DNA from: Escherichia coli
GTDB taxonomy: Bacteria > Pseudomonadota > Gammaproteobacteria > Enterobacterales > Enterobacteriaceae
Length of the DNA: 64,000 bases
Direction: 5' to 3' (one strand)
Assembly (NCBI RefSeq): GCF_009931435.1
Contig: NZ_CP043414.1
This document shows, one piece after another, positions 1 to 51,678 of this stretch (the first letter of the stretch is position 1; the number at the start of each line of letters is the position of its first letter). Position numbers and translations under genes: made by a program. A model generated the notes under the pieces. That model saw only the letters and a list, made by a program, of their open reading frames with translations, made no database searches and was not told where the DNA came from.

Positions 1-323
1 TGCGCTTTGTGCGTGGCGGTGTGGTTAATCCATTGATGCGTCTGCCGCGCAGTAATCTGCTCACCGTCGGTTACCGCATTCATGACGGTTATCTCGAACG
101 GTTAGCCTGGCCGCTGACCGATGCCGCAGGCAGCGTGAAGCCAACAACGCAAAAGTTGATTCCGGCGGATTCACTTCGTTTGCAGTTTTACGACGGCACT
201 CGCTGGCAGGAAACCTGGTCATCAGTGCAGGCGATCCCTGTGGCAGTGCGCATGACTCTGCATTCGCCGCAATGGGGCGAGATTGAACGCATCTGGTTGT
301 TACGCGGGCCGCAATTATCATGA
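1..323 (+). CDS. gspJ: Type II secretion minor pseudopilin GspJ, C-terminal part (5' end lies outside window)
   Basis: ORF runs from the window edge with no start; position directly upstream of gspK/L/M-like genes; stop overlaps the next gene's ATG (ATGA). Confidence 0.6.
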   Translation, partial: RFVRGGVVNPLMRLPRSNLLTVGYRIHDGYLERLAWPLTDAAGSVKPTTQKLIPADSLRLQFYDGTRWQETWSSVQAIPVAVRMTLHSPQWGEIERIWLLRGPQLS

Positions 324-1297
324 TCACCTCACCACCAAAACGCGGAATGGCACTGGTCGTAGTGCTGGTATTGCTGGCGGTCATGATGCTGGTAACCATC
401 ACGCTTTCCGGGCGGATGCAGCAACAACTTGGGCGAACGCGCAGCCAGCAGGAGTACCAGCAGGCGCTGTGGTATAGCGCCAGTGCAGAAAGCCTCGCGC
501 TGAGCGCACTCAGTCTGAGCCTGAAAAATGAAAAGCGCGTGCATCTGGCGCAGCCGTGGGCTTCCGGCCCTCGTTTGTTGCCACTGCCGCAGGGGCAAAT
601 TGCCGTCACTCTGCGTGACGCTCAGGCCTGCTTTAACCTGAATGCCCTTGCTCAACCAACAACGGCGTCGCGTCCGCTCGCGGTACAACAACTGATTGCC
701 CTGATCTCGCGCCTGGATGTGCCTGCTTATCGGGCCGAACTGATAGCCGAAAGCCTGTGGGAATTTATTGACGAAGACCGCAGCGTGCAGACGCGTCTGG
801 GCCGTGAAGACAGCGAGTATCTCGCCCGTTCGGTACCGTTCTACGCCGCCAATCAACCGCTGACCGATATCAGCGAAATGCGCGTGGTACAGGGAATGGA
901 CGCCGGCCTTTATCAAAAACTCAAACCGCTGGTCTGTGCGCTGCCGATGACCCACCAGCAAATCAACATCAACACCCTGGACGTCACGCAAAGTGTGATT
1001 CTTGAGGCGCTGTTTGACCCGTGGTTAAGCCCTGTTCAGGCGCGGGCGTTATTACAACAACGTCCGGCGAAGGGCTGGGAAGATGTCGATCAGTTTCTTG
1101 CACAGCCGCTACTTGCTGACGTCGATGAACGTACTAAAAAACAGCTAAAAACCGTCCTGAGCGTGGACAGCAATTACTTCTGGCTGCGTTCAGATATCAC
1201 CGTGAATGAGATTGAACTGACGATGAATTCGTTAATTGTCCGCATGGGCCCACAACACTTTTCTGTTCTCAGGCATCAGACAGGAGAAAGTGAGTGA
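320..1297 (+). CDS. gspK: Type II secretion minor pseudopilin GspK
   Basis: 325 aa; N-terminal hydrophobic pseudopilin-like segment (MALVVVLVLLAVMMLVTITL); size and position between gspJ- and gspL-like genes. Confidence 0.75.
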   Translation: MITSPPKRGMALVVVLVLLAVMMLVTITLSGRMQQQLGRTRSQQEYQQALWYSASAESLALSALSLSLKNEKRVHLAQPWASGPRLLPLPQGQIAVTLRDAQACFNLNALAQPTTASRPLAVQQLIALISRLDVPAYRAELIAESLWEFIDEDRSVQTRLGREDSEYLARSVPFYAANQPLTDISEMRVVQGMDAGLYQKLKPLVCALPMTHQQININTLDVTQSVILEALFDPWLSPVQARALLQQRPAKGWEDVDQFLAQPLLADVDERTKKQLKTVLSVDSNYFWLRSDITVNEIELTMNSLIVRMGPQHFSVLRHQTGESE

Positions 1298-2472
1298 GTT
1301 CCATGCTTGAGATTTTTTTCCCGCTTTGCGCCGCTGATTCCATCCGTTGGCAGCGTCGTACCGCCGACGTGGAGTGCGGCATCTGGCCTGACGTTGCTGA
1401 CGAACGTCTCCAGCAATGGCTGCAAACTGATGCGATTCGACTCTACATTCCCGGCGAATGGATCAGCGTCTGGCAGGTTGAACTGCCTGATGTCCCCCGC
1501 AAGCAGATACCAACTATTCTGCCCGCCTTACTGGAAGAAGAGCTGAACCAGGATATCGACGAACTGCATTTTGCCGCGTTGAAAATCGACCAGCAACAGG
1601 CAACCGTGGCAGTGATTCACCAGCAGCATATGCGCAACATTGCGCAGTGGTTGCAGACAAACGGCATTACCCGCGCCACCGTTGCACCGGACTGGATGTC
1701 CATTCCTTGTGGCTATATGGCTGGCGATGCGCAACGGGTTATCTGCCGCATCAATGAGTGCCGGGGATGGAGCGCCGGGCGGGCGCTGACTCCGGTCATG
1801 TTCCGCGCACAGTGCAATGAGCAGGATTTACCGCTTTCGCTAACCGTGGTCGGCATTGCTCCGGAAGAACTGTCTGCATGGGCTGGTGCGGACGCCGAAC
1901 GCCTGACCGTTACGGCTCTGCCCGCCATTACCATTTATGGCGAACCGGAAGGGAATCTGCTAACAGGGCCGTGGCAGCCTCGGGTCAGCTACCGAAAACA
2001 GTGGGCGCGCTGGCGGGTGATGATTCTGCCGATATTGCTGATTCTGGTTGCGCTGGCAGTGGAACGGGGCGTGACGTTATGGAGCATCAGCGAACAGGTG
2101 GCGCAAAGCCGCACCCAGGCGGAAAAAAAGTTCTTAACACTGTTCCCGGAGCAGAAGCGGATTGTGAATTTGCGTTCCCAGGTGACGATGGCGCTGAAAA
2201 AATATCGCCCGCAGGCCGATGATACCCGGCTGCTCGCCGAGTTGTCAGCGATAGCCAGCACCCTGAAATCAGCATCACTTTCCGACATCGAAATGCGTGG
2301 TTTCACCTTTGATCAAAAACGCCAGACGCTCCACCTTCAGTTGCGGGCCGCGAACTTTGCCAGTTTCGACAAACTGCGTAGCGCACTGGCGGCAGATTAT
2401 GTTGTGCAACAGGACGCGTTACAGAAAGAGGGTGATGCGGTTTCCGGCGGCGTAACGTTGCGGAGGAAATAA
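1294..2472 (+). CDS. gspL: Type II secretion inner-membrane protein GspL (K-12 yghE is a remnant of this gene)
   Basis: 392 aa; GTG start overlapping the gspK stop by 4 nt; single internal TM segment (WRVMILPILLILVALAV); followed by gspM-like gene. Confidence 0.75.
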   Translation: MSSMLEIFFPLCAADSIRWQRRTADVECGIWPDVADERLQQWLQTDAIRLYIPGEWISVWQVELPDVPRKQIPTILPALLEEELNQDIDELHFAALKIDQQQATVAVIHQQHMRNIAQWLQTNGITRATVAPDWMSIPCGYMAGDAQRVICRINECRGWSAGRALTPVMFRAQCNEQDLPLSLTVVGIAPEELSAWAGADAERLTVTALPAITIYGEPEGNLLTGPWQPRVSYRKQWARWRVMILPILLILVALAVERGVTLWSISEQVAQSRTQAEKKFLTLFPEQKRIVNLRSQVTMALKKYRPQADDTRLLAELSAIASTLKSASLSDIEMRGFTFDQKRQTLHLQLRAANFASFDKLRSALAADYVVQQDALQKEGDAVSGGVTLRRK

Positions 2473-2473
2473 C

Positions 2474-3010
2474 ATGTTACGCGATAAATTTATTCACTAT
2501 TTTCAGCAATGGCGTGAACGCCAGTTAAGCCGTGGCGAACACTGGCTGGCACAACACCTAGCGGGGCGTTCTCCGCGCGAAAAGGGCATGTTACTGGCTG
2601 CGGTAGTGTTCCTGTTTAGTGCCGGATATTACGTCCTCATCTGGCAACCGCTGAGCGAACGGATTGAGCAACAGGAGACGATGTTGCAGCAACTGGAGGC
2701 AATGAACACCCGACTGAAGCGCGCCGCGCCGGATATTATTGCAGCGCGAAACTCCGCCACAACAACGCCTGCGCAGGTATCGCGGGTCATCAGTGATAGT
2801 GCTTCCGCGCACTCGGTGGTCATCAAACGGATAGCCGAGCGTGGGGAGAATATTCAAGTCTGGATAGAACCTGTGGTGTTTAATGACCTGCTGAATTGGT
2901 TAAACGCGCTGGATGAAAAGTATGCGCTGCGGGTGACACAAATTGATGTCAGCGCTGGTGAGAAGACTGGGATGGTGAATGTGCAGCGGCTGGAGTTTGG
3001 ACGGGGATAA
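2474..3010 (+). CDS. gspM: Type II secretion protein GspM (YghD-like)
   Basis: 178 aa, same length as K-12 YghD; N-terminal TM; immediately after gspL; last gene before pheV. Confidence 0.8.
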   Translation: MLRDKFIHYFQQWRERQLSRGEHWLAQHLAGRSPREKGMLLAAVVFLFSAGYYVLIWQPLSERIEQQETMLQQLEAMNTRLKRAAPDIIAARNSATTTPAQVSRVISDSASAHSVVIKRIAERGENIQVWIEPVVFNDLLNWLNALDEKYALRVTQIDVSAGEKTGMVNVQRLEFGRG

Positions 3011-3120
3011 AGTATCAGGAGATTAATATCAATAAAATTACTCTCGTTAACGTGGCGAGAGTAATTCCCCCAGCCCTTATAAGCTAAGTTTTTTCGTGAA
3101 GGTTATTGTCAGATCCAAAA

Positions 3121-3148
3121 GCAAAAACCCGCCTTGTGGGCGGGTTCT
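3121..3148 (-). terminator. Rho-independent terminator downstream of pheV
   Basis: Minus-strand hairpin ACCCGCC-CACAA-GGCGGGT followed by a T-run, immediately 3' of the tRNA. Confidence 0.55.
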
Positions 3149-3157
3149 TTAGAATAG

Positions 3158-3233
3158 TGGTGCCCGGACTCGGAATCGAACCAAGGACACGGGGATTTTC
3201 AATCCCCTGCTCTACCGACTGAGCTATCCGGGC
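3158..3233 (-). tRNA. pheV: tRNA-Phe (GAA anticodon)
   Basis: Minus-strand sequence GCCCGGATAGCTCAGTCGGTAGAGCAGGGGATTGAAAATCCCCGTGTCCTTGGTTCGATTCCGAGTCCGGGCACCA matches E. coli tRNA-Phe; the CCA end is encoded. Confidence 0.95.
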
Positions 3234-3338
3234 AACGGGGCGCATTAAACCTGATTCGCCTCGTCTCGTCAATCAAATTTCTTCAATTTACTGCAGACTG
3301 CACAATCTATCATCACTTTGCCGCTATTGCACGCATTG

Positions 3339-4046
3339 TCAGGCAAACCAGGCGGTCCAGGCGGCGGAAAGCGGCATTGCCAGAAGCAATGCTGGAAGCA
3401 TGTTGACCACCGGGAACATTTTAATGCCACAAATGCGTAATCCGGTTGCCAGCAGCAATAAACCGCCTACAGCGCTGAAGTCTGCCATCATCGACGGTGT
3501 GGTCAGCGGTAATATCAGCGCGGCAGCCCACGCCAGCGTTAACTGGATGATCAGTAATGGGATACTAATTACCGACACCGCAATACCCAACGAGCAGGCG
3601 AAGATCATCGCCGTAAAGAAATCGAGAAATGACTTGGCGATTAAAATACTCGGATCGCCGGTCATCCCTTCGTTCATCGCCCCGAAGATCCCGGTGCCGC
3701 TGGCGCAAAACAGGACAATAATCGCGACATAATTCTGAATAAAAGATTCATGCGCTGGCTTCTTACGTGAGTGGCGAAACAGATTTTGCGCTTTGGCGAC
3801 CACTGTATTGACGCCTTTTTCCAGCAGACAAATTTCGCCAATTAGAGCGCCAAGTAGCGTAGCTAAAACCATCGCTGGAAGGTTGGCGCATTTCACCACC
3901 AGTAAAATACCAATCCCCAGCGATGCCAGACCAAAAATAGATGTCATGGAAACGCGGATACGTTCCGGTAAACGTTGGCTGAGCAGAGCGCCGATAACGC
4001 CACCCAGTAAGACTGCACTCGCGTTGATAAAAGGGCCGATGACCAC
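3339..4046 (-). CDS. yqgA: Inner membrane protein YqgA (DUF554 family)
   Basis: 235 aa polytopic membrane protein; length and position between pheV and speC as in K-12. Confidence 0.85.
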   Translation of the reverse strand: MVIGPFINASAVLLGGVIGALLSQRLPERIRVSMTSIFGLASLGIGILLVVKCANLPAMVLATLLGALIGEICLLEKGVNTVVAKAQNLFRHSRKKPAHESFIQNYVAIIVLFCASGTGIFGAMNEGMTGDPSILIAKSFLDFFTAMIFACSLGIAVSVISIPLLIIQLTLAWAAALILPLTTPSMMADFSAVGGLLLLATGLRICGIKMFPVVNMLPALLLAMPLSAAWTAWFA

Positions 4047-4438
4047 AAGAGTTCCTGTTAACTGTATTGTTTGATTTTCTTATTATGAACTTTTTGCCTT
4101 GTTGATGGCTTGTTTGGTCGCAAAGTCCTGGCTTGCACGCTTTAGCGAAAGGTGCCATGATTGCGCGAATTTTCTCCTCTCTGTACGGAGTTTGCCCGAT
4201 GCACGCCACCTCCTTACATTCTCTCGCTTATCGCCGTTTCGCGCGAAACTCCTCCCTTTTTCTGCTCATGCGGTGAAGTTAACGCACGCTCACTGCAGGA
4301 CAACAGTAAAATCAGAGCGTTTCTGCTTTTACTGATGTCTGGCGGTCGGAGCTGGTGACCAGTTTGACCCATATCTCGTGGGGCAGGGTTTTTCACCTTG
4401 TCCGGTATTCTTACTTCCCCGAAACGGGTTTTGCGCTT

Positions 4439-6574
4439 ATGAAATCAATGAATATTGCCGCCAGTAGTGAACTGGTATCCCGACTTTCTACTCATCGCCG
4501 CGTGGTGGCGTTGGGAGATACTGATTTTACGGACGTCGCGGCAGTCGTCATTACCGCTGCGGATAGTCGCAGTGGCATTCTTACGTTGCTTAAGCGCACC
4601 GGTTTTCATCTACCGGTGTTTTTGTATTCCGAACATGCTGTTGAATTACCTGCGGGCGTTACGGCGGTAATCAACGGCAACGAGCAGCAGTGGCTGGAGC
4701 TGGAATCCGCAGCCTGTCAGTATGAAGAGAATTTGCTGCCACCGTTTTATGACACGCTGACGCAGTACGTTGAGATGGGCAATAGCACCTTTGCTTGCCC
4801 TGGGCATCAACATGGTGCTTTCTTTAAAAAGCATCCTGCCGGACGCCATTTTTACGATTTCTTTGGCGAGAACATCTTTCGCGCCGATATGTGTAACGCT
4901 GACGTAAAATTGGGCGATCTGCTTATTCATGAAGGATCGGCGAAAGATGCGCAGAAATTCGCAGCCAAAGTCTTTCATGCCGATAAAACCTATTTTGTAC
5001 TGAACGGCACATCGGCAGCGAATAAAGTGGTGACGAATGCGCTATTAACGCGTGGCGATCTGGTGCTCTTCGACCGTAACAACCATAAGTCGAATCATCA
5101 TGGCGCGTTGATTCAGGCGGGGGCGACGCCGGTCTATCTGGAAGCTTCACGCAACCCGTTTGGTTTCATTGGTGGTATTGATGCGCACTGCTTTAATGAA
5201 GAGTATCTGCGCCAGCAAATTCGCGACGTTGCGCCAGAAAAAGCCGACCTGCCGCGTCCGTTTCGTCTGGCGATTATTCAGCTGGGAACCTATGACGGCA
5301 CTGTCTATAACGCCCGACAGGTGGTCGATACCATTGGGCATCTGTGTGATTACATTCTGTTTGATTCCGCGTGGGTCGGTTACGAACAGTTTATCCCGAT
5401 GATGGCAGATAGCTCGCCGCTGCTGTTAGAGCTTAACGAAAACGATCCGGGGATCTTTGTGACGCAGTCGGTGCATAAACAGCAGGCGGGCTTCTCGCAG
5501 ACATCGCAGATCCATAAAAAAGATAACCATATTCGCGGGCAGGCGCGTTTTTGCCCGCATAAGCGGTTAAATAATGCCTTTATGCTCCATGCTTCTACCA
5601 GCCCGTTCTATCCGCTGTTTGCCGCGCTGGACGTTAACGCCAAAATTCATGAAGGGGAGAGTGGGCGTCGGCTGTGGGCGGAGTGCGTTGCGTTGGGGAT
5701 TGAAGCCCGGAAGGCGATTCTTGCGCGCTGTAAGCTGTTCCGCCCGTTTATTCCACCCGTTGTTGATGGCAAATTGTGGCAGGATTATCCGACGTCAGTG
5801 TTAGCCAGCGACCGTCGTTTTTTCAGTTTTGAGCCGGGGGCGAAGTGGCACGGCTTTGAAGGATATGCCGCGGAGCAGTATTTTGTCGATCCGTGTAAGC
5901 TGTTACTGACCACACCAGGTATTGATGCTGAAACCGGTGAATATAGCGACTTTGGCGTTCCGGCGACGATTCTGGCGCATTATCTGCGTGAGAACGGTAT
6001 TGTGCCGGAGAAGTGCGATCTCAACTCCATTCTGTTCTTATTAACGCCGGCGGAAAGCCACGAGAAGCTGGCACAACTGGTGGCGATGCTGGCGCAGTTT
6101 GAACAGCATATTGAGGATGACTCACCGCTGGCTGAGGTGTTGCCGAGCGTTTATAACAAATATCCGGTGCGCTATCGCGACTACACTTTGCGCCAGTTGT
6201 GTCAGGAGATGCACGATCTGTATGTCAGTTTCGACGTTAAAGATCTCCAAAAAGCGATGTTCCGCCAGCAGAGTTTCCCGTCAGTGGTGATGAACCCCCA
6301 GGACGCGCATAGCGCTTATATTCGCGGTGAAGTGGAGTTGGTGCGGATTCGTGATGCCGAAGGGCGAATTGCGGCAGAAGGGGCGTTGCCTTATCCACCA
6401 GGCGTGCTTTGCGTGGTACCCGGGGAGGTCTGGGGCGGGGCGGTCCAGCGTTATTTCCTTGCGCTGGAAGAAGGGGTGAATTTGCTGCCAGGTTTTTCAC
6501 CGGAGCTGCAAGGTGTCTATAGCGAAACCGATGCGGATGGTATGAAACGGTTGTACGGGTATGTGTTGAAGTAA
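4439..6574 (+). CDS. speC: Ornithine decarboxylase, constitutive
   Basis: ORF is 739 aa; trimmed to the internal MKSMNIAASSELVSRL start (711 aa), the K-12 SpeC N terminus; fold-type I PLP decarboxylase. Confidence 0.93.
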   Translation: MKSMNIAASSELVSRLSTHRRVVALGDTDFTDVAAVVITAADSRSGILTLLKRTGFHLPVFLYSEHAVELPAGVTAVINGNEQQWLELESAACQYEENLLPPFYDTLTQYVEMGNSTFACPGHQHGAFFKKHPAGRHFYDFFGENIFRADMCNADVKLGDLLIHEGSAKDAQKFAAKVFHADKTYFVLNGTSAANKVVTNALLTRGDLVLFDRNNHKSNHHGALIQAGATPVYLEASRNPFGFIGGIDAHCFNEEYLRQQIRDVAPEKADLPRPFRLAIIQLGTYDGTVYNARQVVDTIGHLCDYILFDSAWVGYEQFIPMMADSSPLLLELNENDPGIFVTQSVHKQQAGFSQTSQIHKKDNHIRGQARFCPHKRLNNAFMLHASTSPFYPLFAALDVNAKIHEGESGRRLWAECVALGIEARKAILARCKLFRPFIPPVVDGKLWQDYPTSVLASDRRFFSFEPGAKWHGFEGYAAEQYFVDPCKLLLTTPGIDAETGEYSDFGVPATILAHYLRENGIVPEKCDLNSILFLLTPAESHEKLAQLVAMLAQFEQHIEDDSPLAEVLPSVYNKYPVRYRDYTLRQLCQEMHDLYVSFDVKDLQKAMFRQQSFPSVVMNPQDAHSAYIRGEVELVRIRDAEGRIAAEGALPYPPGVLCVVPGEVWGGAVQRYFLALEEGVNLLPGFSPELQGVYSETDADGMKRLYGYVLK

Positions 6575-6577
6575 GAA

Positions 6578-6613
6578 TAAAAAAACGGGTCACCTTCTGG
6601 CGACCCGTTTTTC
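6578..6613. terminator. Bidirectional intrinsic terminator between convergent speC and nupG
   Basis: Hairpin ACGGGTC-N-GACCCGT flanked by an A-run on one side and a T-run on the other. Confidence 0.5.
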
Positions 6614-6622
6614 TTTGCGTAA

Positions 6623-7879
6623 TTAGTGGCTAACCGTCTGTGTGCCTGTCGGGACACGAACGTGTTTATATTTGAACATCGCCATGAACGCGAAGGCCAG
6701 AACCACGGAGTAACCTGCGAAAATCAGCCATACGGTCTGCCAGTCGGTAATGCCGTTTTGGGTGTACATCTCAACCACTTTACCGCTCACGATGCCGCCG
6801 AGGATACAGCCGAAGCCGTTAGTCATCATCAGGAACATCCCCTGCGCACTGGCGCGAATTGCCGGGCTAACTTCTTTTTCGACAAACACCGAACCAGAGA
6901 TGTTGAAGAAGTCGAATGCGCAACCGTAAACGATCATCGACAGTACCAGCAGCACGGTACCGAACGGAGTCGGGTCGCCGTAAGCAAACAGCGCAAAACG
7001 CAGGATCCACGCCACGATACTGATCATCATTACGTTCTTAATACCGTAGCGGCTTAAGAAGAACGGGATGGTCAGAATGAACAGGGTTTCAGAGATCTGC
7101 GAAATCGACATGATGATTGACGCATGCTGCACGATGAAGCTGCTGGCAAACATCGGATCTTTGTCGAAGCTGTGCAGGAAGGTGTTACCGAACATGTTGG
7201 TAATCTGCAGTTCCGCGCCCAGCAGCATTGAGAAGATGAAGAAGATTGCCATACGCTTGTTTTTAAACAGCGCGAATGCATCGAGGCCCAGCAGGGTTGT
7301 CCAGCTCTGATTCGCTTGTTGTTTAGCAACCGGAATATGCGGCAGAGTCAGGGTAAACAGAACCAGAACGGCGGAAAGAGCTGCGCCAATATACAGCTGC
7401 ATGTGGCTTAATTCGAAGCCAGACAGGCTCACCACCCACATTGCCATGATAAAGCCGATGGTGCCCCAGATACGGATTGGCGGGAAGTCAGTAACGATAT
7501 CCATCCCGGCATTTTGCAGGCGATAGTATGAGATGGTGTTGATTAACCCAAGCGTTGGCATATAAGCAAACGAGTTAATCAATATCACAAGGAACATCGC
7601 CTCCGGCGTCGTGACCTGTGCTGCCATGAACAGCGTGATAGCGCCAATGGTGTGGCAAATGGCATATACCCATTTCGCACTTAACCATTTGTCGGCCACA
7701 ATCCCCAGCAGCGCAGGCATAAAGACCGCGGCGATACCCAGTGAGCTATAAACTGCGCCAATAGAAGCACCGTCAAACTTCAGGGTAACAAACATATAGG
7801 AACCGAGGGTCGTCAGCCAACTTCCCCACAGACAGAACTGCAGAAAAGAGAGGATTTTCAGCTGCAGCTTAAGATTCAT
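6623..7879 (-). CDS. nupG: Nucleoside:H+ symporter NupG (MFS)
   Basis: ORF trimmed to MNLKLQLKILSFLQF start (418 aa); 12-TM profile. Confidence 0.9.
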   Translation of the reverse strand: MNLKLQLKILSFLQFCLWGSWLTTLGSYMFVTLKFDGASIGAVYSSLGIAAVFMPALLGIVADKWLSAKWVYAICHTIGAITLFMAAQVTTPEAMFLVILINSFAYMPTLGLINTISYYRLQNAGMDIVTDFPPIRIWGTIGFIMAMWVVSLSGFELSHMQLYIGAALSAVLVLFTLTLPHIPVAKQQANQSWTTLLGLDAFALFKNKRMAIFFIFSMLLGAELQITNMFGNTFLHSFDKDPMFASSFIVQHASIIMSISQISETLFILTIPFFLSRYGIKNVMMISIVAWILRFALFAYGDPTPFGTVLLVLSMIVYGCAFDFFNISGSVFVEKEVSPAIRASAQGMFLMMTNGFGCILGGIVSGKVVEMYTQNGITDWQTVWLIFAGYSVVLAFAFMAMFKYKHVRVPTGTQTVSH

Positions 7880-8026
7880 GTTAATTTCCTCACATCGTGA
7901 TGCGGATGAGTGTTTGAAAAAGCACATTTGACCGTGCGAGATGATGCGATTCTATCAACTTCGCAGACTGGTTTTTTGTTACCTGTGGCAAATAATTGCA
8001 AACATTCCCAATTTGCAAAACGAAAT

Positions 8027-8042
8027 TGTGATGTGGATAACA
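8027..8042 (-). promoter_or_regulatory. Candidate CRP-binding site upstream of nupG
   Basis: TGTGA-N6-TAACA close to the CRP consensus TGTGA-N6-TCACA, about 150 bp upstream of the nupG start; nupG is CRP/CytR-controlled in K-12 (from memory). Confidence 0.3.
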
Positions 8043-8080
8043 TTTTTGCCCCTGAGCATCGTCAGGGGCGGTTAGTGGAA

Positions 8081-9187
<1,107 letters not shown>

Positions 9188-9224
9188 TTATGCAAGTTGC
9201 CGGAGACGTGCTCCGGCACTGTTT

Positions 9225-9503
<279 letters not shown>

Positions 9504-9527
9504 TCATCCTCTTTATCGACTCACGCG

Positions 9528-10580
9528 CTAAACCGGCGCGCCAGTGCGTAACTGCTGTAACAAACGCTCCACGGGAGCCGCCAGGCCAACTGACGGCGGT
9601 TGCGCTAAGTTATACCAGAGCGCATTGCCTTCATCCATGCAGCCGGTGAATGACGACACGGGAAGCCACATAGGCACAATATCTAAGTGGAAATGGCTGA
9701 AGGTATGCCGAAACGCGGTCAGTTGCGTCAGGTTATCGGCAGAAATCTGCCGTTGCGCCAGCCACTGCCGCAAACTTTCTTCATCGGCAAACTGCGGGAA
9801 ACAGTATAAACCGCCCCACAATCCGCTCGGCGGACGCTGCGCCAGCAATACTTCATCTTCGTGCTGTAACAGCAAAAAGTAGCCGGTGCGCTCCGGTAGC
9901 GTCTGTTTCGGTTTTTTGCCCGGATAAAGCGACCAGCTATTGTTGGCGGCGGCAATACATCCGTTTTGTAGCGGACAGAGCGAACATTTCGGCTTAGAGC
10001 GCGTACAAATCATCGCGCCCAAATCCATCATCGCCTGGTTAAACCGTTCCACGCCAACCGCGGGCGTCACCTGCTCGCTCAAACTCCATAGTTTATTCTC
10101 GACCTCTTTTTTCCCAGGCCAGCCGCTTACAGCATAGCAGCGCGCCAGCACGCGTTTGACGTTACCGTCGAGAATCGGAAAGTGCTTACCCAGAGAAAGC
10201 GAGAGAATCGCGCCTGCGGTGGAACGCCCGACGCCCGGTAACGCGGCAACCTCATCAAAGGTTTCCGGGAATTTACCGCCGTGTAAGGTGGCAACTTGCT
10301 GTGCCGCTTTATGTAGATTGCGCGCGCGGGCGTAATAGCCCAGTCCGGTCCACAAGTGGAGAACTTCGTCCAGCGGCGCATTGGCGAGATCGGTCACCGT
10401 CGGGAAGCGCGCCATAAAGCGTTCAAAATAGGGGATAACGGTCGCAACCTGAGTTTGTTGCAACATCACTTCTGAGAGCCATACTTTGTAGGGCGTCTTG
10501 TCAATTTGCCAGGGCAGAGTTTTTCGCCCGTATTTATCGTACCAGTCCAGAACCTGAGCTGAAAATTGCGACGCTTGCAT
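9528..10580 (-). CDS. mutY: Adenine DNA glycosylase MutY
   Basis: ORF trimmed to [25 protein letters not shown] start (350 aa); HhH-GPD fold with C-terminal Cys cluster ([17 protein letters not shown]). Confidence 0.9.
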
Positions 10581-10740
10581 GGTCACCGAATTAACTGTTG
10601 TTGGGGGCAAGATTGCAGCACAGCGACGGCAGGGTGTAAACCGGAACTTTCCGCAGCCACGGCCTTATCATGCTTGCATCCGGCAACTAACTTTGGATAA
10701 TGCCCGTTTTCAGAACACTTTCACAAGCGACTAAATCTTT

Positions 10741-11460
10741 ATGAAAAACGACGTCATCTCACCGGAATTTGATGAAAACGGCCGCCCACTGCGCCGTATC
10801 CGTAGTTTTGTGCGCCGCCAGGGGCGACTGACCAAAGGCCAGGAACATGCGCTGGAAAACTACTGGCCGGTGATGGGCGTTGAGTTCAGCGAAGATATGC
10901 TGGATTTCCCTGCGCTTTTTGGCCGTGAAGCGCCAGTGACGCTTGAGATTGGTTTCGGCATGGGGGCGTCGCTGGTGGCAATGGCTAAAGATCGCCCTGA
11001 GCAGGACTTCCTCGGCATTGAAGTGCATTCACCAGGCGTTGGTGCGTGCCTGGCTTCTGCGCATGAAGAGGGCTTAAGCAACCTGCGCGTGATGTGTCAC
11101 GATGCGGTTGAAGTGCTACACAAAATGATTCCTGACAATTCATTGCGCATGGTACAGCTCTTTTTCCCTGACCCGTGGCACAAAGCGCGCCATAATAAAC
11201 GCCGTATCGTTCAGGTGCCGTTTGCCGAACTGGTAAAAAGCAAACTGCAACTGGGGGGCGTATTCCATATGGCGACCGACTGGGAACCTTATGCGGAACA
11301 TATGCTTGAAGTGATGTCTTCGATTGACGGTTATAAAAACCTGTCAGAGAGCAATGATTACGTACCGCGTCCGGCATCACGTCCGGTGACGAAATTTGAA
11401 CAACGTGGTCATCGTCTTGGTCACGGAGTATGGGACTTAATGTTCGAGAGGGTGAAATAA
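10741..11460 (+). CDS. trmB: tRNA (guanine46-N7)-methyltransferase
   Basis: 239 aa; divergent from mutY as in K-12. Confidence 0.9.
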
Positions 11461-11786
11461 TGGCAAAGAACCGTAGCCGTCGTCTGCGTAAAAAAATGCA
11501 CATCGACGAATTCCAGGAATTAGGATTTTCGGTGGCATGGCGATTCCCGGAAGGTACATCGGAAGAACAGATTGATAAAACCGTTGATGACTTTATTAAC
11601 GAGGTTATCGAACCGAACAAACTGGCCTTTGACGGCAGCGGATATCTGGCCTGGGAAGGTCTGATCTGCATGCAGGAAATCGGCAAATGCACCGAAGAAC
11701 ATCAGGCGATTGTGCGTAAGTGGCTGGAAGAACGCAAACTGGAAGAGGTACGCACCAGCGAACTTTTCGACGTTTGGTGGGACTAA
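11460..11786 (+). CDS. yggL: DUF469 protein YggL
   Basis: ORF trimmed to [18 protein letters not shown] start (108 aa); ATG overlaps the trmB stop by 1 nt. Confidence 0.85.
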   Translation: MAKNRSRRLRKKMHIDEFQELGFSVAWRFPEGTSEEQIDKTVDDFINEVIEPNKLAFDGSGYLAWEGLICMQEIGKCTEEHQAIVRKWLEERKLEEVRTSELFDVWWD

Positions 11787-11814
11787 GAAAGCATACGGGC
11801 GATGACAAATGCAA

Positions 11815-11905
<91 letters not shown>

Positions 11906-11969
11906 CATGTACTTTGTTATCAATCTGGGGCCAGCAAATGCTGGCCTGATTTGTTCTTGAGGGAAGACT

Positions 11970-31547: not shown

Positions 31548-31805
31548 TTCGCTAAATATTTCCCGGTGTGCATAGTCATGCCGGGAAACATTCATCAGTG
31601 CGATATATGTTTTTATATTTCTACGCGACTTTTTCTTAGCTCTGTTCACCTGCCTGGTTGTTTCAGAACATAAGTAATATTTAAAACACGAATATTCAGA
31701 AACCAGATTGTCACAAGGAATATTAATTCTTCCCGGTAGTTCTCATTCTTACGTTTACAAATAGTGTATGTTCTGAACAACTATTGTTTTTTAAGCGGTA
31801 AAGAA

Positions 31806-34604
31806 ATGAGACGGATTGATGTTATTTGCAAGGAGCTGGAGCGACTGACGTATGGGCTGGAACTGTCTGATTTAGCGAAGGAGAAAGCATTTACTGCTGA
31901 GGCGATTGGTTTTAACCTTGGGCTGGCACGTAACTCGGTTAGTAAAGATCTTAATCAATTATGGAATGAAGGCCTGGTGGTAAAAAGTCAGGGACGTCCT
32001 GTTTTTTTTCTACATCGTCACGCACTAGAATTGCTCATTAATCGAAAACTGGATGATTGCGAATGCATAGTTCATTCAGTGGCTAGTTTATTGCCAAAGA
32101 AAGAAAAATATACAGATGATGATCCGTTTTCCGGACTTATCGGATACGACCGTAGTCTCCGTGATGCGGTAGAAAAAGGCCGCGCAGCGGTGCTCTATCC
32201 CCACGGACTGCATGTGCTGTTAACCGGGGCATCTGGTGTTGGCAAAACATTCTTTGCTGAGTTAATGCATTGCTTCGCTTGTAAGCACACCATAGGTTCG
32301 CCACCTCCGTTGGTTTACTTTAACTGTGCCGAATATGCTCATAATCCGGAGTTGCTTTCCTCTCATCTGTTTGGTCACCATAAGGGGGCATTTACCGGGG
32401 CAAGCGAGAATAAAACGGGGCTGGTGGAGCAAGCTGACGGAGGTTATTTACTTCTGGATGAAGTGCATCGCCTCCCGTATGAAGGACAAGAGAAGCTCTT
32501 TTCTATTCTCGATAAAGGTGAATACCGCCCGCTTGGTTCAAGTGGGCCAACATATTCAATTTCGGTGCGCCTTATTTGCGCCACCACAGAGTTGGTCAAC
32601 TCCTCACTATTGCGTACCTTCCAGCGGCGTATCCAGGTGTATATCGACTTACCGGGTATTCGCCAGCGTTCGGTCGAGGAGCAACTCGAATTGATTGTCA
32701 GCTTCTTCCAGCGCGAAAGTCGTAAAATTGAACGTACCATAAGCCTTGATAAAACCCTTTTGCACTGGTTGTTAAGTAAACCCCTGGAAGGCAATATCGG
32801 CCAGCTTAAAAGCGATATTCAGTTCTTGTGCGCGCAGGCGTGGGCGTCGGGAATGACCGAGCGCAATGATACACTAGAGTTAGATAAACGACTGGCGGAG
32901 ATGCCGTTTAATACCACGCCGGAGCAGCGCCTGCTGGTCGATGCGTTGTTTGGCGGTAAAGATCGTTTGAACGTGGATGCGCGTACGTTGCCCGCGTTAA
33001 AAAATTCGTTGGCGACCAGCGCGGAAATAGAAGAGAGCGATCTGTTTTACAGTTTCCTGACTCGTGAATATGTCAATCTGCGCAACAGTAACGTGCCGCC
33101 CGCAGAAACGCTGGCTATCCTGAAAAACAAACTCAGTTCGATTTTTGAATACGGTCTCTATAGCCGCCATAGTACGGCGCATCCACCGCGCTATGGCGAT
33201 CAAATTGAGGAGCGGGTGACGTTGCTGATCGGTTACGTGGAGCAGGTATTAGGATTTACGTTGCCAGAAAACCTGGCGAACCCGTTACGTAAACACTTTC
33301 TTGCGCTGATTGGCTATGTGCGGCGAGGGCTTATACCTCAACTCTATTCCTCCAGCTTGATTCTGGATCGCTGTAAAGATGAGTATGACAATGCCACGCT
33401 TCTGTGCCGCAAAATCAATGAGCTGCTGCATATTCAGTGCCCGGCGATGGAGGTGGTCTGGCTGTGCCTGTTCCTGAAAGAGTGTCGCCACTACCGCCAG
33501 CGCATCGACACCAGCCCGGATTGCGGCGTGATTCTAATCGCTCACGGTGCGACCACCGCAACGAGCCAGGCGCAATATGTGAATCGGGTGCTGGAGCGCG
33601 ATCTGTTCTACGCAATTGATATGCCATTTGAGCAGTCGGTGCATGACACCCTGGAAACCCTGACCCGGATGATTCAGGACCGGTGCTGGCAGCGGCTGAT
33701 ACTGATGGTGGATATCGGATCGCTGGTTCATTTTGGCAGCACCATCAGCAAGCTGTTCCAGATTGACGTTCTGTTGTTGCCAAATATCACTCTGACCAGC
33801 CTGCTGGAGGTGGGGCTGGATTTAAGCTACGAAACTGGGGATCTATCGCAATTGGCTGTGCTTATGCAGAGTAAAAATATCCCTTGTCGGCTCTGCACGC
33901 CGCAGCAAGAGAGCGGTGGCAAAGTGCTGGTTATCTCATGTATAACCGGAATGGGGACGGCAGAAAAGATCAAAAAAGTGCTGGAGGAGAGCTTTGGCGA
34001 GCTGATGTCGCAGGACACGCGTATGGTGATTCTCGACTATAACGAGGTGCGCAGCCTGGAGCGTATTCAGCAGGCGCTTAATGCCAGTGAACGGCTGGCA
34101 GGGATCGTCGGCACCTTCCAGCCGGGACTGCCGGATATTCCGTTTATCTCGCTGGAGGAACTGTTTTCCGAGCAAGGGCCGGAGCTGGTGCTTAGCCTGC
34201 TGACTCCGGATCTCTCAAGCAGCGAGCGCCGACTGGAGATGGAGCGCAGCGCCATGCGCTTTATCAGCGCGCTGACCATGGAGAGCATCATCAACCATAT
34301 TTCGGTGCTCAACCCGCAGCGAATTCTGAAAGAGATCGAGGACGTTCTGAACCACTTAACCAACACGCTCTCCCTGAAACCGAGCCGCCAGGTGACACTA
34401 CGTTTTCTGATCCATTGCTGCTGCATGGTCGAGCGTATCGTGATTAACCGCAAACCGTTACAGATGGCGCTGGAAAACCGGCTTGATCTGGACGCTCGTG
34501 CCTTTAGCGTCATCAAATCCTCCTTTTTGCCGATTGAAGAGGCTTACGCTATCCGTTTATCGGACGCAGAATATTTTTATATCTACGAACTGCTCTACAG
34601 CTGA
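31806..34604 (+). CDS. Sigma-54-dependent LevR-type transcriptional activator with PTS regulation domains (DgaR-like)
   Basis: Start chosen at MRRIDVICKELERL (ORF extends 14 codons further upstream); Walker A GASGVGKT; GAFTGA motif (HHKGAFTGASENKTG); about 930 aa, a size that accommodates PRD/EII-like regulatory domains. Confidence 0.8.
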   Translation: MRRIDVICKELERLTYGLELSDLAKEKAFTAEAIGFNLGLARNSVSKDLNQLWNEGLVVKSQGRPVFFLHRHALELLINRKLDDCECIVHSVASLLPKKEKYTDDDPFSGLIGYDRSLRDAVEKGRAAVLYPHGLHVLLTGASGVGKTFFAELMHCFACKHTIGSPPPLVYFNCAEYAHNPELLSSHLFGHHKGAFTGASENKTGLVEQADGGYLLLDEVHRLPYEGQEKLFSILDKGEYRPLGSSGPTYSISVRLICATTELVNSSLLRTFQRRIQVYIDLPGIRQRSVEEQLELIVSFFQRESRKIERTISLDKTLLHWLLSKPLEGNIGQLKSDIQFLCAQAWASGMTERNDTLELDKRLAEMPFNTTPEQRLLVDALFGGKDRLNVDARTLPALKNSLATSAEIEESDLFYSFLTREYVNLRNSNVPPAETLAILKNKLSSIFEYGLYSRHSTAHPPRYGDQIEERVTLLIGYVEQVLGFTLPENLANPLRKHFLALIGYVRRGLIPQLYSSSLILDRCKDEYDNATLLCRKINELLHIQCPAMEVVWLCLFLKECRHYRQRIDTSPDCGVILIAHGATTATSQAQYVNRVLERDLFYAIDMPFEQSVHDTLETLTRMIQDRCWQRLILMVDIGSLVHFGSTISKLFQIDVLLLPNITLTSLLEVGLDLSYETGDLSQLAVLMQSKNIPCRLCTPQQESGGKVLVISCITGMGTAEKIKKVLEESFGELMSQDTRMVILDYNEVRSLERIQQALNASERLAGIVGTFQPGLPDIPFISLEELFSEQGPELVLSLLTPDLSSSERRLEMERSAMRFISALTMESIINHISVLNPQRILKEIEDVLNHLTNTLSLKPSRQVTLRFLIHCCCMVERIVINRKPLQMALENRLDLDARAFSVIKSSFLPIEEAYAIRLSDAEYFYIYELLYS

Positions 34605-34668
34605 TCCCCTGATTTACGGGGCTTAAGGCCTCATCCAATCTCTTTTCCTCTGAGCGTGACACAAATTC

Positions 34669-34683
34669 TGGCACGTCCTTTGC
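34669..34683 (+). promoter_or_regulatory. Sigma-54 (RpoN) -24/-12 promoter for the PTS operon
   Basis: TGGCAC-GTCCT-TTGC matches the TGGCAC-N5-TTGC consensus exactly, about 40 nt upstream of the EIIA start and just downstream of the activator gene. Confidence 0.7.
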
Positions 34684-34722
34684 TCCTGACGAAATGTAAA
34701 CACTGGAGCAAAGGAGGCTATT

Positions 34723-35151
34723 TTGACCACAACTGTATCTATTCATCCGTTACCTGAAATTTTGCTGCTAACTCACGGCGGCTGGGGGCTGCAGCTCTGC
34801 AACAGTCTGCGCATGGTGATGGGCGAAATCGAAGGCGTGACGGAAATCGCGCTGATGCCTGTCGATACGCTGGGCGAGTTTTACCAGCGCGTCGAAGCCG
34901 TGGTGAAAACCATGCCAGAAGGTTCGCTTATCGTGACCGATTTTATCGGCGGCACCACCTCTAACGTGGCGGCGCGGCTGAGCGCCGATTATCCGGTGGC
35001 GGTGATCTCCGGGCTTAATGCCTCGCTGCTGCTGGAGGCGCTGGACAAGCGCGAACATGGCCCACTGACCGCCTGCGTGGCCGATCTGGTGGAAGCTGGG
35101 CGCAACAGTTGCCTGGACGTCGTCTCCCATATTCGTCAATTACAACAGTAA
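34723..35151 (+). CDS. PTS mannose-family EIIA component (DgaA-like)
   Basis: 142 aa; TTG start 5 nt after AAGGAGG; EIIA-Man-like N-terminal region (LLLTHGGWG) with candidate phosphorylatable His. Confidence 0.75.
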   Translation: MTTTVSIHPLPEILLLTHGGWGLQLCNSLRMVMGEIEGVTEIALMPVDTLGEFYQRVEAVVKTMPEGSLIVTDFIGGTTSNVAARLSADYPVAVISGLNASLLLEALDKREHGPLTACVADLVEAGRNSCLDVVSHIRQLQQ

Positions 35152-35161
35152 GGAAAATCGT

Positions 35162-35647
35162 ATGGCAAACATCGTGTTATGTCGCATTGACAGCCGTCTT
35201 ATCCACGGACAGGTGGTGACGAAGTGGGTGGGGCAATCCCAGGCCAACCGTATTGCGGTGGTCAGCGACGAGCTGGATGCCGATCCGTTTATGAAAAATA
35301 TCTACCTGATGGCCGCGCCGCCGAATATCAAAGTGGACTGCTTCAGCAACCAGAGCTTCGCGGCCGCGTGGAAAGACAACCAGCTGGGCGACGGCAACGT
35401 GCTGGTGCTGTTCCCGTCGCTGGCGGCGATTCAGGAAGCGGTGCAGCAGGGCTTTGACGTGGCTGATATTCAGGTTGGCGGCTTAGGCGGCGGGCCAAAC
35501 CGTAAAGCGGTGTTCCAGAACATAACTCTGGATGAAAAAGACGTTGGCATTCTTAACGATTTGAAAAGTCGCGGCATTAAGGCTGTTTTCCAGACCATCC
35601 CGGAAGATAAGCCGCAGTCGCTGGACGATATCCTGAAAAAATTCTGA
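35162..35647 (+). CDS. PTS mannose/sorbose-family EIIB component (DgaB-like)
   Basis: 161 aa; MANIVLCRIDSRLIHGQVVTKW is the EIIB-Man N-terminal signature including the phospho-His. Confidence 0.8.
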   Translation: MANIVLCRIDSRLIHGQVVTKWVGQSQANRIAVVSDELDADPFMKNIYLMAAPPNIKVDCFSNQSFAAAWKDNQLGDGNVLVLFPSLAAIQEAVQQGFDVADIQVGGLGGGPNRKAVFQNITLDEKDVGILNDLKSRGIKAVFQTIPEDKPQSLDDILKKF

Positions 35648-35672
35648 CCCTCTGAACATGGGATAACAAATT

Positions 35673-36422
35673 ATGGATACCTTACTTTTTGCAAGCCTGA
35701 TGGGGCTGTATTACTGGTTTGCCCGGTTGCGCCTTGGCTATACCTTCTCCGCCATGCTGTTACAGCCAGTGGTGGTGGCGGTCTTTGTCGGCCTGCTGCT
35801 CGGCAACATGCCTGCGGCGATGATTATCGGCGCGGGGATGCAGTTGGTATATCTGGGTGTGACCTCAACGCCAGGCGGCAATGTGCCGTCAGACCCGGCG
35901 CTGGCGGCCTGTATCGCCATTCCTATCGCCGTTAAGGCCAATATGGACCCGAACCTGGCGATTGCACTGGCGATTCCATTTGGCGTTATCGGCGTATTCC
36001 TCGACCAGTTGCGTCGCACGCTAAATGCGGCCTGGGTGCATATGGCCGATAAACACGCGGAAACGGCCAATATGTCAGCCATTATGCGCTGCGCCTTTCT
36101 CTACCCGGCGCTGCTGGGGCTGGTGCTACGTTTCCCAGTGGTGTTCGCCGCCAACTACTTCGGCCAGAACGTAGTGGAAAGTTTCCTCAAGCTGATGCCG
36201 CACTGGCTGACCCACTCGTTTGAAATCATGGGCGGGATTCTCCCGGCGCTGGGCTTCGCCATCACCATTATGGTGATTGGTAAAAAGAGCCTACTGCCGT
36301 GGTTTATCGGCGGATTCTTCGCGGTGCTGTACCTCAAGGTGGACATCATGGCGATGGCGATTTTCGGCACCTGCGTGGCCTTCCTGATTAAAGGCCTGGC
36401 GAAAAATGAAGGAGCGGCATAA
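35673..36422 (+). CDS. PTS mannose-family EIIC component (DgaC-like)
   Basis: 249 aa polytopic membrane protein in EIIB-EIIC-EIID order. Confidence 0.8.
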   Translation: MDTLLFASLMGLYYWFARLRLGYTFSAMLLQPVVVAVFVGLLLGNMPAAMIIGAGMQLVYLGVTSTPGGNVPSDPALAACIAIPIAVKANMDPNLAIALAIPFGVIGVFLDQLRRTLNAAWVHMADKHAETANMSAIMRCAFLYPALLGLVLRFPVVFAANYFGQNVVESFLKLMPHWLTHSFEIMGGILPALGFAITIMVIGKKSLLPWFIGGFFAVLYLKVDIMAMAIFGTCVAFLIKGLAKNEGAA

Positions 36423-37279
36423 TGAGCGGCGGCGTAATGCAGCATGAACTGGTGGAGCGCGCGCGGGAGTCCGGGGCGCTGACCAAAGCGGATATCACCA
36501 AAGCGTGGTTTATCTACTGGCTTGGCGCGGAAGTTTCCAGCTCCTATGAGCGTTTACAGAGCCTGATTTTCTGCGCCTCGATGACGCCGATTATTAAAAA
36601 GCTCTATCCGCAAAAGGAGGAGCAGGTGGAGGCGTTAAAACGCCATCTGAACTTCTTCAACTCAGAGCAGACGTTTGGCGCGGTGATCCAGGGGATCTCC
36701 ATCGCCATGGAAGAGCAAAAGACCCGCGGCGAGGCGATTAACGATGCCTCTATCACCGGGATTAAAACCGGCCTGATGGGGCCGCTGGCCGGAATGGGCG
36801 ACTCCATCATCTGGGCGGCCGTGATGCCGCTGTTGATTGCTATTTTTATCCCGTTCGCCGCCAATGGCAGCGCAATGGGCGGTATTTTGCCGCTGATTCT
36901 CTACCCGGCGATTACGCTGGCAATCAGCTACGGCATGGTGCACAAGGGCTATACGCTAGGGCGCGATTCGATTATCAGCCTGCTGCAGGGGGGGCGCATC
37001 AAGGAGCTTATCTACGGCGCTAACGTACTGGGGCTTATCATGATGGGTGCGCTATCCGCGAGCTTTGTCAAGATAACCTCACCTTTAAAAATTAGCGCAC
37101 TGAAAGGCTCTGAAGTGGTGGTACAGCAGATTCTTGACTCCATCGCGCCCGGCCTACTGCCGCTGGCGGCAGTGTTCGCGATCTACTTCTATCAGGTGAA
37201 AAAGGGACCGCGTTACACCACGATTTTGCTGTCAATTGTGGCGTTGAGCGTGGTCTGCTCGCTGCTGGGAGTGCTGTAA
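36422..37279 (+). CDS. PTS mannose-family EIID component (DgaD-like)
   Basis: 285 aa; start shares one nt with the EIIC stop; soluble N-terminal part then membrane helices, typical of EIID-Man. Confidence 0.8.
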   Translation: MSGGVMQHELVERARESGALTKADITKAWFIYWLGAEVSSSYERLQSLIFCASMTPIIKKLYPQKEEQVEALKRHLNFFNSEQTFGAVIQGISIAMEEQKTRGEAINDASITGIKTGLMGPLAGMGDSIIWAAVMPLLIAIFIPFAANGSAMGGILPLILYPAITLAISYGMVHKGYTLGRDSIISLLQGGRIKELIYGANVLGLIMMGALSASFVKITSPLKISALKGSEVVVQQILDSIAPGLLPLAAVFAIYFYQVKKGPRYTTILLSIVALSVVCSLLGVL

Positions 37280-37282
37280 GCC

Positions 37283-38392
37283 ATGACGCAGAATATCTAT
37301 CAACAACTGGGGCTGAAACAAGTGATTAACGCTTGCGGTAAGATGACGATTCTCGGCGTCTCCAGTGTCGCGCCGGAGGTGATGCAGGCCACCGCGCGTG
37401 CGGCATCCTCTTTCGTGGAGATTGATCAGCTGGTGGACAAAACCGGCGAGCTGGTCTCTCGCTTTACCGGGGCGGAGGATAGCTACGTTACCTCCTGCGC
37501 CTCGGCAGGGATCGCCATCGCTATCGCCGCCGCCATTACCCGCGGCGACAAGGCCCGGGTGGCGCTCATGCCGGATAGCTCCGGCATGGCCAATGAAGTG
37601 GTGATGCTGCGCGGCCATAACGTCGATTACGGCGCATCGATCCTCAGCGCGATCCGCTTAGGCGGCGGGCGCGTGGTGGAGGTGGGGTCAAGTAACCTGG
37701 CGGCTCTCTGGCAGCTGGAGAGTGCCATTACCGACGCGACCGCCGCGCTGCTGTATGTGAAGTCGCATCACTGCGTGCAGAAGGGGATGTTGAACATCGA
37801 GGACTTCGCCCAAGTCGCGCAGATGCACAACCTGCCGTTGATTGTCGATGCCGCCGCCGAAGAGGATTTACGTGCCTGGGTGGTGAGCGGAGCGGATATG
37901 GTGGTCTACAGCGGCGCAAAAGCCTTTAACGCGCCTACCTCCGGGTTTATCACTGGTAAAAAAATCTGGATTGCAGCCTGTAAAGCGCAGCATTACGGCA
38001 TTGCCAGGGCGATGAAAATCGGCAAGGAGAACATGGTTGGGCTGGTTTACGCGCTGGAGAATTATCACCAGGGGCAGGCAATCATCACCGCGGAACAGCT
38101 CCAGCCAGTGGTTGAAGCGATTTCTGCGATTCACGGGTTAACGGCTGATATTGAGCAGGATGAAGCCGGGCGTGCAATCTGGCGTATTCGTATTCGGGTA
38201 AATGCGCAAGAATTTGGAGTTGCCGCTCGCGTCGTCGAAGCGCAACTGCGTGGTGGCGATATCGCGATTTATACACGGCGGTATAACCTCCACCAGGGCG
38301 TTTTTAGCCTTGATCCGCGTACGGTGGCGGATGGGGAGATGGCGCTTATCGTGGCGCGACTGAAGGAGATTGCAGATCATGCAAAAGATTAA
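37283..38392 (+). CDS. SelA-like PLP-dependent enzyme, putative sugar-acid-6-phosphate ammonia-lyase (DgaE-like)
   Basis: 369 aa; Gly/Ala-rich fold-type I PLP-like core (SCASAGIAIAIAAAI, SGAKAF with candidate PLP lysine); follows the PTS genes. Confidence 0.65.
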   Translation: MTQNIYQQLGLKQVINACGKMTILGVSSVAPEVMQATARAASSFVEIDQLVDKTGELVSRFTGAEDSYVTSCASAGIAIAIAAAITRGDKARVALMPDSSGMANEVVMLRGHNVDYGASILSAIRLGGGRVVEVGSSNLAALWQLESAITDATAALLYVKSHHCVQKGMLNIEDFAQVAQMHNLPLIVDAAAEEDLRAWVVSGADMVVYSGAKAFNAPTSGFITGKKIWIAACKAQHYGIARAMKIGKENMVGLVYALENYHQGQAIITAEQLQPVVEAISAIHGLTADIEQDEAGRAIWRIRIRVNAQEFGVAARVVEAQLRGGDIAIYTRRYNLHQGVFSLDPRTVADGEMALIVARLKEIADHAKD

Positions 38393-39122
38393 TTTCTATC
38401 ATAATCGTGTGGCAATTAATGTGCTGGCGAAAGATATCGCCAATGCCCGTGAAATCTATGACGCCGCCGAAGGCCACGCGGTGATTGGCGTGCTTTCCGC
38501 GCAGTTCTCCTCGGTGGATGAGGGGATCCAGGAAGTTAAACGTTGGATGGCGGAAATACCGTCCATTTCAGTAGGTCTGGGGGCGGGTGACCCGGCGCAG
38601 TATTACAAAGCTGCGATGATTGCGGCGCAGATTCATCCAGCACACGTTAACCAGACCTTTACCGGTTGTGGTTTCGCGGCAGGCGCGCTTGCGACGACGG
38701 GCGGTGAGCAGACCCATGTCAACGCGCTGGTTAGCCCGACGGGAACGCCGGGCGAAGTGCTGATTTCCACTGGCGTTAGCAGCAGCCAGGGTACGCCTGC
38801 CCGCGTATCCTGCGATACGGCAGTGCGAATGATGCTAGATATGGGCGCACACGCGGCGAAGTTCTTTCCGATGGGCGGCGAGAAGTCGCTTCCGGAGCTA
38901 TACGCGCTGGCGACCACGGCGGCGCGCAATGGTATGACGCTGATTGAGCCAACCGGCGGGATTGATTTGGATAACTTCAGTGTGATTCTAAAAACTTGTC
39001 TGGAGGCGGGTGTGCCGCGCATTATGCCGCATGTTTACAGCTCGATTATAGACCCTGATACGGGATATACCCGACCGGATGATGTAGCCGTTTTGCTGAA
39101 TAAAGTGAAATCACTACTCTGA
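38379..39122 (+). CDS. Putative KDGP/KDPG-type aldolase (DgaF-like), family assignment tentative
   Basis: About 247 aa from ATG at 38379 (the track ORF starts 9 nt earlier at a TTG); overlaps the end of the preceding gene; last gene of the operon. Confidence 0.55.
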   Translation: MQKINFYHNRVAINVLAKDIANAREIYDAAEGHAVIGVLSAQFSSVDEGIQEVKRWMAEIPSISVGLGAGDPAQYYKAAMIAAQIHPAHVNQTFTGCGFAAGALATTGGEQTHVNALVSPTGTPGEVLISTGVSSSQGTPARVSCDTAVRMMLDMGAHAAKFFPMGGEKSLPELYALATTAARNGMTLIEPTGGIDLDNFSVILKTCLEAGVPRIMPHVYSSIIDPDTGYTRPDDVAVLLNKVKSLL

Positions 39123-42213: not shown

Positions 42214-42420
<207 letters not shown>

Positions 42421-51656: not shown

Positions 51657-51678
51657 AAGAAAACCTCTCTGAAAGTAG

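Follow-up and report, generated by a model that had tools for sequence, protein, structure and literature searches.

Of the type II secretion systems (T2SSs) described in Escherichia coli, T2SS-alpha (gspA-O) is situated between rpsJ and bfr and secretes chitinase (PMC3032704). The T2SS-beta operon, its place beside pheV, its function and the deletion of gspD-K from K-12 have also been described (PMC3707838, PMC3032704). Secretion of SslE by T2SS-beta has been shown in strains W, E2348/69 and H10407, and the system has been assigned to the group that has 'Vibrio-type secretins' (PMC3707838).

The DNA analysed here (the window) is a stretch of 64,000 nucleotides from an E. coli contig (NZ_CP043414.1). 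Its positions 1-3010 can be assigned with high confidence to the distal part of the T2SS-beta operon on the E. coli chromosome (sslE/yghJ-pppA-yghG/gspS-beta-gspCDEFGHIJKLM), which lies between glcA and pheV-yqgA-speC. This identity rests on the presence of the same locus in complete genomes, on the annotated gene order and on the identity of GspK and GspJ to proteins of PDB 3CI0. Coordinates of the features are collected in Table 1.

Table 1. Features at the start of the window, in order of position
Feature	Position	Strand	Description or basis
gspJ-beta, 3' part	1..323	+	Last 106 of 201 codons; minor pseudopilin
gspK-beta	320..1297	+	Full length, 325 aa; minor pseudopilin capping the pseudopilus tip
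gspL-beta	1294..2472	+	Full length, 392 aa, GTG start; bitopic inner-membrane platform protein, binds GspE
Mosaic (recombinant) tract	1333..2723	+	Covers most of gspL and extends into the 5' part of gspM
Right end of the K-12 internal deletion	1508..1510	+	K-12 yghE starts at GspL residue P73; window sequence to the left is absent from K-12
gspM-beta (yghD)	2474..3010	+	Full length, 178 aa; last gene of the order gspJ-K-L-M
Intrinsic terminator of pheV	3123..3149	-	GC-rich hairpin followed by a T-run (terminator scan, sequence)
pheV, tRNA-Phe(GAA)	3158..3233	-	ARAGORN; Rfam tRNA, 68.3 bits
yqgA	3339-4046	-	ORF listing
speC	4439-6574	+	ORF listing

The synteny of the window, gspJKLM-pheV-yqgA-speC, is the order found at an annotated E. 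coli locus (L001), and in the best complete-genome match the annotated order is glcA-sslE-pppA-gspS2-gspC-D-E-F-G-H-I-J-K-L-yghD-tRNA-Phe-yqgA-speC. Residues 30-325 of GspK are approximately 98% identical to GspK of enterotoxigenic E. coli (ETEC; PDB 3CI0 chain K), and 102 of 104 residues of the GspJ fragment are identical to ETEC GspJ (3CI0 chain J). We take 3CI0, the GspK-GspI-GspJ crystal structure, to represent the pseudopilins of the ETEC system that secretes heat-labile toxin (LT). The original prediction had placed these genes in a second T2SS adjacent to pheV, and the position of the tRNA, the gene order, the match of GspM to a YghD-specific model and the identity to 3CI0 all bear this out. 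A block from gspJ to gspM (≥ 80% of 3.3 kb) is carried at the same chromosomal position by 3,510 of 5,426 complete E. coli genomes (approximately 65%). Intact gspK-L-M, carried by roughly two thirds of the complete E. coli genomes, is thus an ordinary feature that has already been described.

All four gsp products score above the curated cut-offs of their NCBIfam models. GspJ matches TIGR01711 (86.5 bits, profile positions 92-191 of 192) as well as Pfam T2SSJ. GspK matches NF037980 (281.4 bits, profile positions 2-304 of 307) together with Pfam PF21687 (T2SSK_1st) and PF03934 (T2SSK), and has the layout expected of a pseudopilin, with a single N-terminal hydrophobic helix (residues 6-33). GspL matches TIGR01709 (182.3 bits), Pfam T2SSL (PF05134, residues 37-139) and GspL_C (PF12693, residues 234-391); a cytoplasmic domain, one transmembrane segment at about residues 243-263 and a periplasmic domain make up the expected layout. 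The length and GTG start of gspL match those of the PGAP-annotated gspL at L001. GspM matches NF007274, 'GspM family T2SS protein YghD', with 403.6 bits (cut-off 352) over profile positions 1-178 of 178, and Pfam T2SSM (PF04612) over residues 24-177; a transmembrane segment at residues 38-58 gives it the expected layout.

From the junctions as read in the sequence, gspJ, gspK, gspL and gspM are translationally coupled. The gspJ stop codon (TGA, 321-323) overlaps the gspK ATG within ATGA at 320-323, gspK and gspL share GTGA at 1294-1297, and gspL and gspM meet at TAA-C-ATG (2470-2476). These junctions and the open reading frames agree with the GspK of 325 residues, GspL of 392 residues and tightly overlapping GspM of the original prediction. 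Its description of gspJ-K-L-M as apparently intact holds for gspK, gspL and gspM, which are full length; it does not extend to gspJ, of whose 201 codons the window contains the last 106. Frameshifts in gspK or gspL had been named as a possible flaw; neither a frameshift nor an internal stop was seen in the gsp genes in the ORF listing of window positions 1-6000. PGAP annotation of other E. coli genomes gives the gsp genes the same lengths. Judged from codon substitutions, gspK, gspL and gspM are under purifying selection: compared with other alleles dN/dS was 0.06 to 0.38 (0.12 to 0.15 for gspL), and stop codons occurred in none of the alleles compared. The G+C content of the gsp block is 55 to 58%, compared with 49 to 53% in the flank.

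How T2SS-beta works is known from published studies of H10407, E2348/69 and W and from established knowledge of the protein families, restated in part in PMC3707838. Substrates (the lipoprotein mucinase SslE and, in ETEC, heat-labile toxin) enter the periplasm by Sec-dependent export. The inner-membrane assembly platform consists of GspL, GspM, GspC and GspF, and the ATPase GspE is docked there by the cytoplasmic domain of GspL. GspE powers assembly of a GspG pseudopilus tipped by the GspK-GspI-GspJ complex, and the pseudopilins are processed by the prepilin peptidase PppA. Folded substrate is expelled by the pseudopilus through the secretin GspD, which the pilotin GspS-beta directs to the outer membrane.

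The start of the window falls within gspJ. A complete T2SS-beta operon, which the original prediction expected to extend further upstream, is very likely present in the source genome, to judge from a near-identical locus, four contexts of the exact GspL allele and counts among complete genomes. Positions 1-3176 are 100% identical to CP057959.1 and positions 3152-16574 are 99.985% identical. In CP057959.1, sslE-pppA-gspS-beta-gspCDEFGHIJ lies directly upstream of gspK, and the upstream genes are called at normal lengths. Exactly this GspL is encoded in four distinct genomic contexts, and in each of them pppA, gspS-beta and gspC-J come before gspK, again at normal lengths, and sslE precedes pppA in the exact-protein look-up that reaches further upstream. 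The 8.8 kb upstream (≥ 80%) are held by 3,216 of the 5,426 complete genomes (59%), compared with 3,510 with the gspJ-M block, so the base rate alone for the upstream block is about nine-tenths. It could be argued that only the distal genes are intact and that the operon is broken further upstream by a deletion, an IS insertion or a frameshift, leaving gspK-L-M recently orphaned like yghD in K-12. Such breaks do occur. Among complete genomes there are several independent internal deletions of the operon besides that of K-12, including gspD'-'gspK, gspF'-'gspL and one that retains only pppA to part of gspD; the gspJ-M block is found in about 8% more genomes than the upstream block at ≥ 80%, and E. 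coli B has been reported to have a truncated gspL (PMC3032704). Against a break in the source strain, however, stand the normal-length upstream genes of CP057959.1 and of the remaining three contexts encoding the same GspL, as well as purifying selection on gspK, gspL and gspM, and this explanation is very unlikely. A single BLAST gap relative to the CP057959.1 locus (L004) was considered as a frameshift and rejected, being an artefact of the alignment end at window position 3177, where the island of that genome begins.

With a complete operon, T2SS-beta is presumably expressed and secretes SslE in the source strain. It is possible, though doubtful, that the system is complete and effectively silent, either repressed like T2SS-alpha of K-12 or dependent on rich medium at 37°C for its expression, in which case intact genes would not imply secretion under most conditions. 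In strain W no SslE secretion could be detected at 30°C or in minimal medium, and in H10407 expression is regulated by temperature (PMC3707838). However, conditional expression is already part of the known biology, which makes silence no real competitor of a functional T2SS-beta, and purifying selection on gspK, gspL and gspM argues that the genes are used. An origin of the gsp genes from T2SS-alpha, or from a horizontally acquired island at pheV, is extremely improbable. pheV is a known hot spot for island integration and the G+C content of the gsp block is somewhat above that of its flank. Yet the gsp block is on the opposite side of the attachment repeat from the islands of relatives, hence outside them, and the gspJ-M block keeps its position in 65% of complete genomes. 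T2SS-alpha is sited elsewhere (PMC3032704): the flanks in the window are pheV, yqgA and speC, which is not the rpsJ-bfr position. Moreover, GspM passes the YghD-specific model and GspK and GspJ are 98% identical to the 3CI0 proteins. Both origins are ruled out by position and orthology, leaving the distal end of the resident T2SS-beta operon as the preferred reading.

The attachment site for islands at pheV is unoccupied in the window, where the direct repeat of the island corresponds to about positions 3156-3176. In CP057959.1, an island of approximately 31 kb has a 21-bp repeat of the 3' end of pheV at its boundaries, and islands are also present at pheV in the other contexts with the same GspL that extend downstream. 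Exact-protein look-ups with GspK, SpeC and GspL recovered genomes that encode identical copies of these proteins; none of them has this gspL allele together with an empty pheV. An empty pheV where the closest relatives bear an island is a mild curiosity. Apart from the tRNA, nothing was detected by an Rfam scan of the region. A shorter part of the stem of the pheV terminator (3128-3140) scores as terminator-like on the plus strand, after gspM.

Over its first 12 kb, the window is 96.8% identical to K-12. In J53, a K-12 derivative, the gene order at the locus is sslE-pppA-gspS2-gspC-'gspL(partial)-yghD-pheV. The deletion was mapped by comparing the K-12 locus (L002) with the complete locus L004 in blastn and by inspecting the junction. 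It removes approximately 8.0 kb, comprising gspD-K and codons 1-72 of gspL. Its left end is the last base of the TAA stop codon of gspC and the junction has 2 bp (TA) of microhomology; gspC thereby gains 12 sense codons read out of frame, followed by a new stop. The alignment proposed in the original prediction for locating the truncation of yghE places it at GspL P73 (window 1508-1510). The same prediction held that K-12 keeps just yghE (a gspL fragment) and yghD. Both are there, yghE without codons 1-72 and yghD intact, but K-12 also retains sslE (yghJ), pppA, gspS-beta (yghG) and gspC (yghF).

Within the operon, gspL is set apart by its divergence. Of the 89 mismatches that separate the first 3.2 kb from two comparison loci (L003 and L010), 88 lie within 1333-2723, and outside this tract gspJ, gspK and speC are 99.9 to 100% identical. 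dS against these loci is approximately 0.21 over the tract, compared with 0.002 to 0.004 in gspK and speC. Taken alone, gspL is at best 97.2% identical to its counterpart in any complete RefSeq genome, and the mismatch profiles of the window against five alleles are patchy. The tract shows an ordinary homologous recombination signature beside a known hypervariable locus. That it reflects selection for swapping alleles of the GspL-GspM platform, for instance because L/M pairs are co-adapted or because the periplasmic domains have to evade some targeting agent, with gspL acting as a diversifying module, seems quite unlikely. Co-transfer of the divergent tract with a pheV island was also considered but found no support, since the tract ends at about 2723, well short of the attachment site at 3156. 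A mosaic, highly polymorphic gspL is a mild curiosity in its own right.

Among complete RefSeq E. coli genomes, identity to the window reaches at best 96.2% over positions 1-3300 and 98.6% over the flanking core (3300-20000). Over the latter region the last of the 12 best-listed genomes is at approximately 97%, and identities in the band from 95 to 99% account for 5,434 of the 5,460 matching records. The source lineage, some 3% away from the majority of complete genomes, is a somewhat divergent one within E. coli.

Taken together, the feature is confirmed as real, intact, common and already known. The gene content suggests that the source strain very probably has a working SslE-secreting T2SS-beta, and it differs from K-12 in a well-documented way. 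SslE acts in colonisation and biofilm formation and is a candidate antigen for vaccines. The import of the result is mainly correct annotation; the end of the K-12 deletion is a handy annotation detail, no discovery.

In comparison with known systems, the closest are the T2SS-beta systems of ETEC H10407, EPEC E2348/69 and strain W, which share with the window the pheV locus, the gene order and the coupling, and from which it shows no structural difference. The window allele has approximately 94 to 96% DNA identity to most complete E. coli genomes. The remnant locus of K-12 shares the flanks pheV, yqgA and speC. Its yghD is 94.4% identical in amino acid sequence to gspM of the window, and its yghE is likewise 94.4% identical to GspL residues 73-392. 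In contrast to K-12, which is without gspK and the start of gspL, the window has gspK and the whole of gspL. T2SS-alpha of E. coli is the same type of machine, built from the same Gsp protein families, but is encoded at another chromosomal locus by a paralogous gene set. More distant is the Eps T2SS of Vibrio cholerae, whose EpsJ, EpsK, EpsL and EpsM are homologous but have only distant sequence similarity, and whose substrates are different. The cytoplasmic domain of GspL (residues 24-230) is similar to a chain of PDB 4PHT that is labelled 'Type II secretion system protein L' (E = 2e-13).

The window carries a tract with sharp edges that covers gspL and extends over the 5' part of gspM (Table). 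Compared with two other loci, L003 and L010, the tract is approximately 6% divergent (dS ~0.21), while the surrounding DNA is 99.9 to 100% identical. The closest match to gspL in a complete genome is 97.2%. In E. coli as a whole, the alleles of gspL have a patchy, mosaic appearance. Another cluster of mismatches, with approximately 2% divergence from the otherwise near-identical L003 and L010, was seen over mltC-yggX-mutY and is probably a further recombination tract.

Features of the window and their coordinates
Feature	Coordinates	Strand	Genes or products
Divergent tract	1333-2723		gspL, 5' part of gspM
pheV site region	3123-3233		no island
Second mismatch cluster	8073-10935		mltC-yggX-mutY
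PTS cluster, flanked by speB and loiP	31764-39122		dagR (transcriptional regulator); mannose-family PTS subunits IIA-IID (four); dgaE (D-glucosaminate-6-phosphate ammonia-lyase); dagF (KDPG-type aldolase)
ES036 (CssrF sRNA) match, Rfam, 43 nt	42312-42354	+	
ECF-type transporter cluster, flanked by fumE-side genes and epd	49034-52110	-	two ATPase subunits, T component, S component; PPC-domain DNA-binding protein
ES036 (CssrF sRNA) match, Rfam, 43 nt	56094-56136	-	

No island is present at pheV in the window. In the closest relative, CP057959.1, which is 100% identical to the window over 1-3176, an island of approximately 31 kb is inserted between gspM and pheV. It carries genes for a P4-type integrase, ParDE, CbtA/CbeA and RadC, together with antirestriction genes. 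The island is bounded on both sides by a direct repeat of 21 bp that corresponds to the 3' end of pheV (AGTGGTGCCCGGACTCGGAAT). All contexts found that encode exactly the same GspL protein and extend downstream have an island at the pheV site; the window is without one. The empty site is consistent with either precise excision or the state before insertion.

Only 561 of the 5,426 complete genomes cover 20000-44000 at ≥ 80% in one place, indicating that part of this stretch is variable. The variable part is probably the cluster that joins dagR and the PTS genes to dgaE and dagF. In the matching E. coli genome, the ECF-type transporter cluster has only a generic annotation.

The two matches to ES036 score 48.9 and 39.9 bits (Rfam gathering score 37.6) and both are intergenic, lying after tkt and before mscS. 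The presence of two oppositely oriented copies suggests that this is a short repeat and not a gene dedicated to an sRNA.

Over 1-20000 as a whole, the source lineage is unusually far from the complete E. coli genomes in RefSeq (5,426). Among these, the closest match to the core is 98.6%, and the band from 95 to 99% holds nearly all records. Near-identical genomes are GenBank assemblies only (for example, CP057959.1). This distance from complete RefSeq genomes, with near-identical sequences confined to GenBank assemblies, suggests that the source belongs to a deep-branching or under-sampled lineage of E. coli. K-12 shows 96.8% identity to the first 12 kb of the window, with a dS of 0.17 for speC.
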